Source: an uncultured Solirubrobacterales bacterium
Lineage (GTDB): Bacteria; Actinomycetota; Thermoleophilia; Solirubrobacterales; Solirubrobacteraceae
NCBI GenBank assembly: GCA_963696615.1
Contig: CAVOKU010000003.1
Coordinates: forward strand, 537,552 to 601,551
DNA length: 64,000 nt
Reading direction: 5' to 3'
Of this stretch, positions 3,634 to 53,491 are shown in pieces. A program made the position numbers and the translations under genes. The notes beneath the pieces are model-generated. The model worked only from the letters and a program-made list of their open reading frames with translations. It was not told the DNA's origin and searched no databases. How positions within the stretch are numbered: position 1 is the stretch's first letter; the number at the start of each line of letters is the position of its first letter.

Positions 3634-4227
3634 CTACGCGAGCACGGTCGCCATCGCCCGACGGCCGCGCTCGAGCGAACGCACGTCGCCGTGCAGCTGG
3701 TAGTCGCAGTTGGTGCCGACGGCGAGCGCGTTGAGCGTGAACGCGACCTCGGCGGGATCGGTCTCACTCGGGAGCTCGCCGGCCGTCACGGCGGTCGCAG
3801 CCTCGGTATCGAGCACCCGCAGCCATCGGTTGAGCGCGAGCTTCACGGCGTCGTGGACCGGGCCCTCGCGCGCGTCGAACTCGACGGAGGCGGTCGTGAG
3901 AAAGCATCCGCCCGGGAAGCAGGGCTCGCCGATGTAGCGAATCCAGCCGTCGCAGATCGCGAGCAGCCGTGCGCGCCCGGCCGGCTCGATTGCCGCGGGC
4001 TCGTAGACGGCGACTCGGAACATGTCGACCGCGAGGTCGAGCGTCGCAAGCTGCAACCGCTCCTTGTTGCCGAAGCGCCCGACGAGACCACTCTTGCTCA
4101 TGCCAAGCGTCTCGGCGAGCCCGCCGATCGTGAGGCCTTCCAGGCCGACGACGGAGGCGATGTCCACGGCAGTGCGGAGGGTGAGGGCGCGGTCAGCGTC
4201 CACCTGTGAGGCGAGGCGGCGGGACAT
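3634..4227 (-). CDS. TetR/AcrR-family regulator
   Basis: HTH GLEGLTIGGLAETLGMSKSGLVGRFGNKE; GGCF C-terminal motif; start ATG 4227. Confidence 0.92.
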   Translation of the reverse strand: MSRRLASQVDADRALTLRTAVDIASVVGLEGLTIGGLAETLGMSKSGLVGRFGNKERLQLATLDLAVDMFRVAVYEPAAIEPAGRARLLAICDGWIRYIGEPCFPGGCFLTTASVEFDAREGPVHDAVKLALNRWLRVLDTEAATAVTAGELPSETDPAEVAFTLNALAVGTNCDYQLHGDVRSLERGRRAMATVLA

Positions 4228-31542: not shown

Positions 31543-31546
31543 CAAG

Positions 31547-31620
<74 letters not shown>

Positions 31621-31769: not shown

Positions 31770-32486
31770 TCAGAACGCGATCGGTTTGCCGTCGCGGAAG
31801 AACCCGCCGGTGGGACCGTCGTCGGGGAGGGTCGCCAGCCAGACGATCCCCGAGGCGCCGTCCTCGACGGGCTTCTTGGCTCCGAACTGGGAGCCCATGT
31901 CGGTGTTGACGAACCCCGGGCAGGCGGAGTTGACGAGCACTCCGTCGTCCTTGAGCTCGGTGGAGAGGATGCGGGTCATCGCGTTCAATGACGCCTTCGA
32001 GACACGGTAGCCGGGCGACCAGCCGCCCATCTCCGCCACGCCCCCCATGCCGCTGGACACGTTGACCACCCGGGGATGGTCGCTCGCCCGCAGCAGCTCG
32101 AGCAGCGCCACGGTGAGGCGCCAGGCGCCGTAGAGGTTGGTCTGCAGCGTGCGATCGATCGCCTCGAAGTCGGGGTCGGTCCCGCTCACGCCCCAGTCCG
32201 CGCCGATGCCGGCGTTGTTGACCAGCACGTCGAGCCTGCCGGGGCTCTGCTTCACGGCCGCGGCGGCGGCGGCGATGCTCTCCGGATCCGATACGTCGAG
32301 CGTCAGCGGCGTGACCCTCCCGCCGGTCTGAGCCGCGATCTCCTCGGCGGCCTGTGCGGCCTTCGCCCCGTCGCGGGCGCTCAGGATCACCTCATAGCCC
32401 TCCGCGGCCAGCTGGCGGGCGACCTCCCGACCGATGCCGCGGTTCGCGCCCGTGACCAGTGCGATGCCCTTGCCGTTCTCGCTCAT
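31770..32486 (-). CDS. SDR oxidoreductase (carbonyl-reductase-like)
   Basis: VTGANRGIG, NNAG, YRVSK and ACPGFVNTDM motifs. Confidence 0.93.
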   Translation of the reverse strand: MSENGKGIALVTGANRGIGREVARQLAAEGYEVILSARDGAKAAQAAEEIAAQTGGRVTPLTLDVSDPESIAAAAAAVKQSPGRLDVLVNNAGIGADWGVSGTDPDFEAIDRTLQTNLYGAWRLTVALLELLRASDHPRVVNVSSGMGGVAEMGGWSPGYRVSKASLNAMTRILSTELKDDGVLVNSACPGFVNTDMGSQFGAKKPVEDGASGIVWLATLPDDGPTGGFFRDGKPIAF

Positions 32487-32572
32487 CCCATCCCTCGCTC
32501 TCTGCCATGCCAACGCCGTGGTCGCAGAAACCTACCGACCTCGCCGTGCCGGCTCGATCTAGGATCTCCTCC

Positions 32573-33511
32573 GTGCGGGCGGCGGTGGTGGACATCGGAA
32601 CCAACTCGACTCGTCTGCTGATCGCCGACGTCGCCTCCGACGGCGCGATCACCGAACTGGTGCGGCGGTCGGTGGTGACGAGACTCGGCGACGGCGTCGA
32701 CTCGAGCGGAGCCCTCTCCGAGGAGGCTGCCTCGCGGGTGTTCGCCGCGCTCGACGGGTTCGTCCCCGAGATCGACCGTCTGCGGCCCGAGCGCAACCTC
32801 GCCGTGCTCACCTCCGCCGTGCGAGACGCGTCCAACGGGTCGGACTTCGCCGCCAGGATCCGCGCCGACTACGACCTCGACGCCCGCGTTCTCTCCGGCG
32901 ACCAGGAGGCCCGGCTCACCTTCCTCGGCGCGATGTCCGGCCAGACCCACACGGACGTCGCCTCCGCCGAGGAGCCGACCGTCGTGATCGACATCGGTGG
33001 AGGGTCCACCGAGTTCGTCGTCGGCGTTGGGGGAACGCCCGGATTCCACGTGTCACTGCCTGCGGGGGTGGTGAGGATGAGCGAGCGCCACATCCACACC
33101 GACCCCCCGGCTCCGGCAGAGCTGCAACAGCTCGCCGCTGACACCCGCTCGATCTTCCTCGGCGGACTGCCCGCGGGCGAGCGCTCGCGCGTGAGGCGTG
33201 GCATCGCCGTTGCCGGCACCGCAACCTCGGCCGCCGCGATCGACCAGGAGCTCGACCCGTACGACCCCGCGCGGGTTCACGGCTATCAGCTGCTGCTGGC
33301 GACCGTGGAGCTGCTGCTGGCACGCCTCGCGGACGTGAACGAAGAGCACCGCCGCGCCACCGTCGGCCTCGATCCCGCTCGCGCGCCCACGATCGTGGCG
33401 GGGATGGTGCTCCTGTCAGAGGCGATGCGGGCGTTCGATCTCGAGGAGGTGGAGGTGTCCGAGCACGACATCCTCCACGGTGGCGTCATCTCGCTCGCAG
33501 GCCTCGCCTGA
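32573..33511 (+). CDS. ppx: Ppx/GppA exopolyphosphatase
   Basis: DIGTNSTRL, SAVRDASN, DQEARLTF, DIGGGSTE and SEHDILHG motifs; GTG start. Confidence 0.93.
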   Translation: MRAAVVDIGTNSTRLLIADVASDGAITELVRRSVVTRLGDGVDSSGALSEEAASRVFAALDGFVPEIDRLRPERNLAVLTSAVRDASNGSDFAARIRADYDLDARVLSGDQEARLTFLGAMSGQTHTDVASAEEPTVVIDIGGGSTEFVVGVGGTPGFHVSLPAGVVRMSERHIHTDPPAPAELQQLAADTRSIFLGGLPAGERSRVRRGIAVAGTATSAAAIDQELDPYDPARVHGYQLLLATVELLLARLADVNEEHRRATVGLDPARAPTIVAGMVLLSEAMRAFDLEEVEVSEHDILHGGVISLAGLA

Positions 33512-33541
33512 ACAATTCCGGTCGCCCCCCCAGTTCTGCTA

Positions 33542-33550
33542 TGTGATACT
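33542..33550 (+). promoter_or_regulatory. Extended -10 element TG-T-GATACT
   Basis: Lies 4 nt before the structured region; the same GATACT hexamer precedes the gene at 39927. Confidence 0.55.
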
Positions 33551-33554
33551 CTCA

Positions 33555-33750
33555 CCGTAGTGGGGGTGGAGCTGTGCTGGGTCGCGTGTCTTCCCGGTCG
33601 GTGACAGACCCGGGCTTTCGTCGAACCCCCGACCTCGACGTGTCCCTCTGCCCGGGTCGCACTCCCACTGCGGTCCCTGGTGACGTACCCCTCGATGTTT
33701 CGCCGGAGACCACCCGAGGAAGCCGCCCCGTGGGCGGCTTCCTCCTTTCC
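33555..33750 (+). ncRNA. Candidate structured small RNA, family not recognised
   Basis: 14-bp helix 33555-33568/33660-33673 with two G-U pairs; 9-bp helix 33607-33615/33650-33658; two C-rich-loop hairpins; flanked by promoter and terminator. Confidence 0.6.
33716..33750. terminator. 13-bp perfect hairpin GAGGAAGCCGCCC-CGT-GGGCGGCTTCCTC followed by CTTTCC
   Basis: Direct inspection; sits between the candidate sRNA and the convergent TPP-enzyme stop. Confidence 0.85.
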
Positions 33751-33757
33751 GTGCCGG

Positions 33758-35419
33758 TCAGGCGAGGTTGGACTTGCGGGGGTAGACGACGTCTGGGTCG
33801 GTCAGCACGTTGACGAGCGCCGGCTTGCCCGAGGAGAACGCCCGCTCCAGCGCGGGAACCACGTCCCCGGGACGCTCGACGAGCTCCCCATGGGCGCCCA
33901 GCGCCTGCACGACCTCGTCGTAGCGGGTCGCGGGCCGCAGCTCGGCGGCCACCGAGTAGCCGTACAGGAACTCCATCGGGTGCTTCTCCAGCGCCCAGAT
34001 GCCGTTGTTGCCCATCACCCCCACCACCGCCACGCCGTGACGGGCGAGGGTGTCGAACTCCATCCCGGAGAAGCCGAAGGCGCCGTCTCCCAGCAGCAGC
34101 ACGACCTGACGCTCGGGATGGGCGAGCTTCGCCGCCAGCGCATACCCGGGACCGGCGCCCAGACAGCCGAACGGCCCCGGATCCAGCCAGCAGCCGGGCT
34201 GGTAGCTGTCGATCACGCGGCCGGCGTAGGAGACGTAGTCGCCGCCGTCGCCGATCACGATCGCATCGCGGTCGAGCACCTTGCCCAGCTCGGCGTACAG
34301 GCGCATCGGGTGAAGCGGAGCGCGGTCGTCCTGCAGCTCGGACCGCTCGGCCTCGCGACGCTCGGTCTCGGCGGCCCGCAGCTGCTCGATCCAGGGGCCG
34401 CTCGACAGCGGACGGTTGCCGGCGGCGATGCGCACGTCAGCGAGCGTCTGGGTCAGCGCGCCATAGAGCTCGGCGGCGACCGCCCGGGGATGGCGCCGCT
34501 GTGATTCGGCGACATCCACCACCACGATCTCGGTGTCCTCTCCGAACGATCCGCCAAAGCCGAGCCTGAAGTCCATCGGCACTCCCACCACCAGCGCCAC
34601 GTCGGCCTCCTTCAACGCCTGGGAGCGGCTGCGGGAGAAGAACAGCTCGTGGTCGGCCGGCACACAGCCGCGGGCCAATCCGTTCAGGTAGACGGGCACC
34701 CGCAGCGTCTCTGCCAGCGCCAGCAGCTCCTGCTCGCCGTGTCCCCAGTAGAGGTCGGTCCCCGCCATGATCACCGGACGCTCCGCCGCCGCCAGCAGCT
34801 CCCCGGCCCGTTCTACCGGCCCCTCGCCGGCGCCCCGCTGCGCGCGCGCGGGCGGGCCCTCGAGCACGTCCTCGGACTCGGCGGCCTCCATGAAGACGTA
34901 GTCCAGCGGAAAGTCCACGAAAGCGGGGCCGCCGTGCGGAGCCAGGGCAGCCAGGAAGGCCTCGTCCACCAGACCGGGGATCTCCTCGGTGCTCTCCGGC
35001 GTCACCGCCAGCTTGGTCAGGGGGCGCACGAACGGGACGTGGTCTATCTCCTGCAACGAGCCCATCCCCCATCGGCCGGCGGGCGCCCGGCCGCCGAGGA
35101 TCACCATCGGCGAGTGGTTGGCCTGGGCGCTGGCCATGGCGCTCATCCCGTTGGTCACGCCGGGCCCCGCCGTCAGGGCGCACACGCCCGGCTGGCGCGT
35201 GACCTTCGCCCAGCCCTCGGCGGCGAACGCGGCGGTGGACTCGTGACGGACGTCGACGATGTCGACACCCTCTTTCAGGCAGCCATCGTAGATCGAGAAG
35301 AGATGCCCACCGGACAGCGTGAACAGCTTGCTGACGCCATGGGCCCGCAGCCGGCGCGCGACCAGGCGCCCGCCGTGAAAGGTCTCGGCGCTCTCCTCCG
35401 TGCCCTGCTCGACGGCCAT
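33758..35419 (-). CDS. TPP-dependent enzyme, acetolactate synthase/2-hydroxyacyl-CoA lyase superfamily
   Basis: [21 protein letters not shown] and the GDGAFG...NNGIW TPP motif. Confidence 0.93.
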
Positions 35420-35506
35420 CGAGGCGACTCTATCCACTGCGGTCGGCATCTGCCCCCCGGGGCGGGATCCCGGGCACCCGTCGCGGCCCCGAGAGGGGGC
35501 CGATCA

Positions 35507-35590
35507 GACCCGGGACGGGATTCGAACCCGCAAGCTCTTGCGAGCGGCGGATTTTAAGTCCGCTGACTTTGCCAGTTTGTCCACCCGGGT
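35507..35590 (-). tRNA. tRNA-Leu (TAA) with long variable arm
   Basis: ACCCGGGTGGACAAACTGGCAAAGTCAGCGGACTTAAAATCCGCCGCTCGCAAGAGCTTGCGGGTTCGAATCCCGTCCCGGGTC; all stems pair. Confidence 0.92.
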
Positions 35591-53420: not shown

Positions 53421-53491
53421 CTGGGGGGCAGGGATTCGAACCCCGATTCCCAGGACCAAAACCTGGTGTCCTGCCATTGGACGACCCCCCA
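53421..53491 (-). tRNA. tRNA-Gln (TTG)
   Basis: TGGGGGGTCGTCCAATGGCAGGACACCAGGTTTTGGTCCTGGGAATCGGGGTTCGAATCCCTGCCCCCCAG; U1-A72 pair; upstream of glmU. Confidence 0.96.

Follow-up and report, generated by a model that had tools for sequence, protein, structure and literature searches.

A structured small RNA family between ppx and a convergent TPP-enzyme gene in Solirubrobacterales, with a possible base-pairing function

Does the DNA between a ppx gene and a convergent TPP-enzyme gene of an uncultured Solirubrobacterales bacterium encode an RNA of its own and, if it does, how might that RNA act? Solirubrobacterales are abundant in soils and, to our knowledge, almost unstudied at the RNA level. 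We analyzed a 64,000-nucleotide stretch of contig CAVOKU010000003.1, referred to throughout as the window, for which an original prediction made from the letters alone had proposed a structured small RNA between these two genes; all seven features listed in that prediction are literally present in the window. The comparative data described here leave little room for doubt that this intergenic stretch is a genuine gene for a structured small RNA that had not been catalogued before, located at 33559-33744 on the plus strand and about 185 nt in length. The window's copy is a divergent member of a family of RNAs about 150-190 nt long that is restricted to part of the order Solirubrobacterales. The statement taken as a whole, namely an uncatalogued structured RNA family with its own transcription unit, the fold given below and a mechanism of base pairing in trans, has in our estimation slightly less than an even chance of being correct.

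The locus and its covarying fold

The ppx gene lies upstream of the RNA gene in the same orientation and ends with a stop codon 33 nt short of the -10 region. As had been claimed from the window, no plus-strand gene follows the RNA, and at about 180 loci the gene beyond it runs convergently. The coordinates of the flanking genes, of the promoter region and of the elements of the RNA are collected in Table 1.

Table 1. Positions in the window of the RNA elements, the promoter region and neighboring genes
Feature	Position	Strand	Observation
ppx (Ppx/GppA family exopolyphosphatase)	32459..33511	+	Pfam PF02541, E = 4.8e-48; NCBIfam best match TIGR03706
Promoter region, block AGTTCNGNYATNTGATACYYT	33532..33552	+	Conserved throughout the window's class
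H1, family 5' hairpin	33564-75 with 33584-95	+	12/12 pairs vary on both sides
J1/2 linker	33596..33606	+	GGUCCAUAG in the family; GGUCGGUGACA in the window
P2 domain	33607..33658	+	
P2	33607-15 with 33650-58	+	9/9 pairs vary on both sides
P3, inside P2	33619-24 with 33635-40	+	6/6 pairs vary on both sides
C-rich 3' internal loop of the P2 domain	33641-49	+	
J2/4 linker	33659..33671	+	(A/G)CCCUACC in most relatives; GCACUCCCACUGC in the window
P4 hairpin	33672-80 with 33703-11, spanning 33672..33711	+	9/9 pairs vary on both sides
T, 13-bp GC-rich hairpin, GAGGAAGCCGCCC-CGU-GGGCGGCUUCCUC	33716-28 with 33732-44	+	Conserved in the covariance-model alignment
TPP enzyme gene, acetolactate synthase-like, convergent	33758..35449	-	Best NCBIfam match NF004516, 885 bits
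tRNA genes (three)	31546-31620, 35507-35590, 53421-53491	all -	Rfam scan

A covariance model (R1) was built from a hand-annotated MAFFT seed (A2), 44 sequences were realigned (A4) to give a second model (R2), and R2 was used to produce an alignment of 100 distinct sequences (A5), all by iterative use of Infernal. The window scored 58.9 bits with R1 and 82.8 bits with R2 (E = 1e-18). Within A5, 92.5% of the cells are standard pairs, compared with 36-52% when the partners are slid by 1-3 columns, 40 of the 49 pairs vary on both sides, and none of 500 column shuffles matched any of the observed measures, although these pair statistics are somewhat inflated because A5 was fitted to the model. A structure-independent measure, mutual information, ranks the same helices at the top. 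The consensus consists of H1, P2 enclosing P3, P4 and T, arranged as separate hairpin domains. The original prediction had called for conservation and covariation in relatives, and both are strong across the 100 sequences; the P2, P3 and P4 helices that it drew are present in the window, conserved and covarying at every pair (Table 1). It did not describe H1, a hairpin that the window has in weak form only, with standard pairing at 9 of 12 positions. A search of J2/4 for a trinucleotide that could extend P2 as a UAG/CUA pairing found no complement, and the family mutual information contains no sign of a pseudoknot or of tertiary covariation.

The strand on which the RNA folds is also apparent. 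The plus-strand fold of the window has an energy of -103 kcal/mol and a z-score of -4.45 relative to dinucleotide shuffles, none of 200 of which folded as well, while the minus-strand fold is unremarkable (z = -1.94). Pairs in the family include 412 G-U and U-G combinations against 93 A-C and C-A combinations, and this excess identifies the plus (ppx) strand as the folding strand, in agreement with the earlier claim of a plus-strand structured RNA. Matches to the model on the reverse strand were limited to the palindromic hairpin T. It could be argued that the region is non-functional as an RNA, either because high-GC DNA folds well by chance or because it belongs to a small-protein gene, and ORFs of 79 aa (+) and 53 aa (-) do overlap it in the window. 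This reading is refuted by covariation that lies far above both controls, and it also runs against the plus-strand z-score and the absence of a conserved reading frame, the lengths of the family members falling in all three classes modulo 3 instead of being multiples of three and no frame being consistently open; we regard its probability as practically negligible.

Only two unpaired motifs are at least 90% conserved, namely G..CAUAG in J1/2 (GGUCCAUAG) and ACCCCUGCC in the P4 loop. Partition-function folding of the 100 sequences gave unpaired probabilities of 0.8-0.9 for the CAUA of J1/2 and the CCCC of the P4 loop, and the P2 internal loop (UCCC), J2/4 (ACCC..) and J4/T (CCCC) are also predicted to be single-stranded. 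The window deviates at both motifs, with GGUGACAG in J1/2 and, in place of the near-invariant P4 apical loop of the family, ACCCCUCGAUG, which places ACCCCU at 33687-33692. This window-like variant (ACCCCUC...) was found in the P4 loop of the RNA in no other genome; three Solirubrobacterales loci returned for it carry ACCCCTC elsewhere in the RNA. The alignments inspected also revealed one class in which CCCCGAGG is found both in the 5' arm of P4 and before T, so that an alternative pairing is possible. The repeat is missing from a second class and from the window, its conservation being limited to the one class, which tells against an attenuator based on it.

Other parts of the original prediction proved to be peculiar to the window's copy. 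The helix P1 does exist there as 14 contiguous bp (33555-33568 with 33660-33673) with two G-U pairs, J2/4 of the window being able to pair with 33555-33568, and a fold with P1 gains about 8 kcal/mol over one with H1. P1 is not conserved, however, the corresponding family duplex between the 5' region and J2/4 having an energy of -7.1 kcal/mol, equal to that obtained with shuffled J2/4 sequences (-6.8 kcal/mol). Four of its nucleotides lie upstream of the predicted transcription start, and its last two nucleotides are the first two of P4. The proposed kissing loop has a similar history: GGUCGG (33596-601) is complementary to CCGACC (33629-34) in the window, but the interaction of J1/2 with the P3 loop across the family (-1.3 kcal/mol) is no better than with shuffled sequences (-1.4 kcal/mol), and no pseudoknot emerges from the mutual information. 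Of the two C-rich loops to which attention had been drawn, that of P4 is conserved and that of P3 (ACCCCCGACC) is unique to the window, the P3 loops of the relatives being short, variable and often GNRA-like. With deviations from the two invariant motifs and a weaker H1, the window's copy could work differently from the rest of the family or be decaying.

Distribution, promoter and terminator

A search with the ppx protein yielded the 80 nearest loci, all in Solirubrobacterales MAGs and with 62-77% protein identity. A single-sequence nhmmer search followed by a profile search showed that 36 of these 80 loci have a full-length homologue of the 200-nt stretch, immediately behind ppx and in its orientation. 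Pattern scans, two over species-representative genomes and one over metagenome contigs, the second and third requiring the arms of T, brought the total to 113 distinct copies in genomes and 70 in metagenomes, all from Solirubrobacterales. The carriers, among them the MAGs OY970168.1 and OY970204.1, are without exception MAGs or metagenome contigs. The RNA is common to well over 100 soil Solirubrobacterales genomes, with more than 100 species-level members. All confirmed copies sit between ppx and the convergent TPP gene, and the linkage of RNA and ppx is unbroken in about 180 copies. The order thereby gains a well-supported RNA family whose helices covary strongly, whose promoter and terminator are defined and whose place in the genome is constant, one that is suited to deposition in Rfam and to better annotation of MAGs.

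The remaining 44 of the 80 nearest relatives are without the RNA. The spacing of ppx and the TPP gene in these relatives ranges from -28 to +165 nt and hairpin T is absent as well, so that the whole element is present or absent as a unit. Since the two genes abut or overlap there, their 3' ends must either overlap or have very short terminators in common. When presence of the RNA was placed on a neighbor-joining tree of the TPP protein it was clustered, with 8 parsimony changes over 72 taxa, a pattern that fits vertical inheritance with a few losses. Some of the RNA-less ppx/TPP junctions (a subset of L004-L080, 44 loci) carry unrelated small hairpins.

Pattern matches in other phyla were rejected as family members, as they had no match to the RNA profile and both flanking genes were missing. 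The arms AGGAAGCCG...CGGCTTCCT recur in Rhizobium, Paenibacillus, Halomonas and Bacteroidales without the rest of the RNA (non-actinobacterial loci L118, L121, L123, L129, L159, L178 and others), and these look-alikes are probably terminator hairpins of independent origin.

An extended -10 had been proposed from the window, and the conserved box is indeed there, TGTGATACT being present at 33542-33550, but the register given was off by 2. Comparison with a sister class that lacks the TG fixes the hexamer as TACTCT at 33547-33552, with the TG of the extended -10 at 33544-33545. Conservation of the promoter block in the window's class reaches as far as the start of the RNA, and the motif is unique in the window. 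The sister class instead has TTGCAT-N17-TAC(A/T)CT, and comparison of the aligned classes shows the classic trade-off between -35 quality and the extended TG, a good -35 box standing in where the TG is missing. From the spacing to the hexamer, transcription is likely to start at approximately 33558-33560, and with the corrected register this predicted start falls inside P1 as originally drawn.

The existence of an own promoter and terminator, as the original prediction had claimed, is supported by the comparative evidence of a conserved -10 box and a conserved T. A scan of 33000-34300 for consensus sigma-70 promoters and terminators found nothing; its rules demand a -35 box and a U-tract, and the promoter and terminator of the window are without them. 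A search for RNA sequencing runs containing the sequence of the window or of a relative (L034) found none, returning only soil DNA runs with partial matches, and the scan of metagenomes yielded no short, metatranscriptome-like contigs, all those recovered being 1.2 kb or longer and having the usual genomic context. In a Solirubrobacteraceae MAG (L196; DAINCW010000018.1, 4114-4293) the RNA gene is inverted relative to both of its neighbors (TPP +, RNA +, ppx -) and retains a GATACT box of its own, and this inverted copy argues for the RNA as an autonomous transcription unit.

The region upstream of the RNA differs again in two more classes, where a GGAC-N4-GTYC palindrome is present. In these classes, which are without the TGATACT box, the palindrome takes the form TGGACGGATGTCC or TGGACATCCGTTCGA and is conserved 50-90 nt upstream of the RNA (examples of class B/C are L060 at approximately 3975-4000, L134, L199 and L156), and in L086 part of it is C-terminal coding sequence of ppx. 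This palindrome could be a transcription-factor operator. The promoter block of class A contains an inverted repeat, TCAGA-N2-TCTGA, which overlaps the extended -10, reads TCAGATATCTGA in some relatives and is degenerate in the window (TTCTGCTATGTGA), and about 18 nt upstream of it is an ATTCAGG box. The inverted repeat and the box may be sites for a repressor or another regulator.

At the other end of the RNA, the predicted 13-bp terminator hairpin T is nearly invariant in the family. It is a perfect palindrome that forms the same hairpin on both strands, and its distance from the TPP stop codon is 14 nt in the window and 3-30 nt across the family. The central 10 bp of T are invariant in the 36 homologues that were found without reference to it; in the large set its invariance is partly a matter of ascertainment, since the later scans required the arms. 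Compensatory changes are found in the most divergent member, L067. In L196 the hairpin is followed by U7, the only canonical U-tract among the copies inspected. A palindrome so close to the TPP stop codon probably terminates both convergent units, that is, T would end the RNA and the TPP transcript alike, and this double constraint may explain the invariant central 10 bp.

The same facts raise the question of whether the element is local and cis-acting, a structured 3'UTR of ppx combined with a bidirectional terminator or insulator for the convergent transcripts, or, in a variant of this idea, whether it could be an antisense partner of TPP read-through transcripts. Its constant position between the two convergent genes, with T always within 30 nt of the TPP stop, the ability of T to form on either strand and the fact that ppx and the RNA have no terminator between them in the window's class are what would be expected of such an element. 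A terminator, however, would have no need of four further covarying helices or of invariant loop motifs, more than half of the nearest relatives (44/80) do without the element, and the conserved promoter together with the inverted copy argue for an autonomous gene. We therefore consider a purely local role rather improbable and return to the reading in which the RNA is a gene in its own right.

Known RNAs and possible modes of action

Searching the whole window against Rfam 15 at gathering scores returned three tRNAs only, and a search at E values of up to 10 with the window region and three relatives (L007, L060 and L134) gave nothing consistent, so that the claim of novelty relative to Rfam 15 holds. 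A literature search likewise found no description of this RNA or of any small RNA from Solirubrobacterales. One resemblance was considered and rejected. The P3 hairpin of the window, CGUCGAACCCCCGACCUCGACG, resembles over 21 nt one hairpin of the M. tuberculosis F6 sRNA (RF01791), but the match, at 15.6 bits and E = 6, is far below the gathering score of 46 and extends over 21 of 57 model positions and, since the family does not conserve the P3 loop, the resemblance is coincidental.

The original prediction had offered an RNAP-binding RNA as an alternative, and 6S RNA (RF00013) and Ms1 are indeed similar in size and rich in secondary structure. These two properties, a length of about 185 nt and a high degree of structure, are the only ones that favor such an assignment. 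No match to 6S was obtained at E values of up to 10 with the window or with three diverse relatives, and the consensus is not an end-to-end rod with a central bubble, but four separate hairpin domains, with no stem in which the 5' end would pair with the 3' end, the only long-range helix, P1, being specific to the window. An RNA of the 6S or Ms1 type is thus very improbable.

The gene arrangement recalls that of the enterobacterial small RNAs MicL and DapZ, which are embedded in 3'UTRs, have their own promoter, share a terminator with the upstream gene, require Hfq and, the terminator aside, have little structure. The Solirubrobacterales RNA likewise has its promoter at the very end of the gene before it, whose strand it shares, and provides the sole terminator available to the upstream mRNA. 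It differs from them in being highly structured, and in one relative (L196) it is inverted.

The closest parallel is with 6C RNA (RF01066; B11/6C in M. tuberculosis, 6C in C. glutamicum), which consists of two adjacent hairpins with loops of at least six Cs each and is found across the Actinobacteria. Both are actinobacterial, high-GC, independent small RNA genes, and both have exposed C-rich hairpin loops as a conserved feature. The differences are nonetheless substantial. There is no match in sequence or model at the gathering score or at E values of up to 10, the Solirubrobacterales RNA is about twice as long and has another architecture (H1, P2/P3, P4 and T), and it has a single invariant C-rich apical loop with four Cs as opposed to six or more. 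It also carries a second invariant motif, GGUCCAUAG, that is not C-rich, and it is confined to Solirubrobacterales.

The 6C RNA of M. tuberculosis binds G-rich mRNA sites through its C-rich loops, independently of a chaperone and of Hfq (PMC6486639). By analogy, we tentatively propose, at odds clearly below even, that the RNA described here is a chaperone-independent, trans-acting regulator that base pairs through the C-rich loop of P4. According to this proposal the RNA would be transcribed from its own promoter, with TGnTACTCT as the extended -10, just past the stop codon of ppx, would fold into H1, the P2 domain enclosing P3, P4 and T, and would end at the very stable 13-bp hairpin T. The exposed P4 loop (ACCCCUGCC) would then pair with G-rich sites in mRNAs, for example Shine-Dalgarno-like sequences, and other C-rich single strands (the P2 internal loop, J2/4 and J4/T) may help. 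The candidate seed has the conservation (at least 90%) and, in its CCCC, the predicted accessibility noted above. The complement of the P4 loop was not enriched at the TPP start, in the ppx 5' region or in neighboring DNA, and a search of the same limited DNA for bipartite targets of the 'SD plus AUG clamp' type found nothing. If the C-rich loop mechanism is true, chaperone-free G-C pairing of the 6C type reaches the deepest-branching Actinomycetota.

Conservation that extends across the junctions, and the equal invariance of GGUCCAUAG, which is not C-rich, weaken a pure seed model; junction-wide conservation suits a fold that binds a protein or ligand at least as well as it suits a seed. The RNA might instead act through its fold, by binding or sequestering a protein or as a ligand-responsive 'orphan riboswitch-like' element, perhaps tied to ppx, a tie that might mean polyphosphate or (p)ppGpp metabolism. 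That the helices covary freely and the conserved nucleotides are those of junctions and internal loops, that P3 is often capped by a GNRA-type tetraloop, that every one of the approximately 180 copies is linked to ppx and that the stem of T is conserved in sequence beyond the needs of a terminator all speak for this possibility. It is countered by the lack of detectable tertiary or pseudoknot covariation, of a match to any Rfam aptamer, of a candidate partner protein and of a co-oriented downstream gene for the RNA to regulate, the RNA being outside the 5' leader of any co-oriented gene across about 180 loci, and the link to ppx may merely reflect vertical inheritance. We judge a fold-dependent mode of action to be on the unlikely side. 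A narrower form of it, in which the RNA is a fold-dependent sensor or a component of a ribonucleoprotein tied to ppx, for instance through polyphosphate or (p)ppGpp, would explain the ppx linkage, the conservation of the junctions and the sequence-invariant terminal hairpin, and is in our view distinctly improbable. If the fold does bind a ppx-linked protein or ligand, the family represents a new class of regulatory RNA.

Several minor observations were made in the surroundings of the RNA gene. An element, CCCCCGCTATGGACCCATTAGCGAC, is conserved near the locus (L010 at approximately 4053, minus strand; L059 at approximately 4810, minus strand; L087 at 6201, plus strand); it occurs in genomes with and without the RNA and contains the exact complement of GGUCCAUAG. 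On the minus strand of the window, a conserved (G)ATAGAGT box, of which TAGAGT occupies 35432-35427, precedes an in-frame ATG of the TPP gene at 35419 by 7 nt, and this TAGAGT/ATG arrangement recurs in most of the TPP upstream sequences of relatives that were inspected. The gene read from this ATG encodes 553 aa, the size of the ORFs of the relatives, and 563 aa when read from 35449. The true start of the TPP gene is probably 35419, and, judged from the position of the box, its mRNA appears to be leaderless. The tRNA genes of the window comprise a tRNA-Met (CAT), a tRNA-Leu (TAA) and one more tRNA, and the tRNA-Leu gene is directly upstream of the TPP gene and co-oriented with it, an arrangement that is shared by many relatives.
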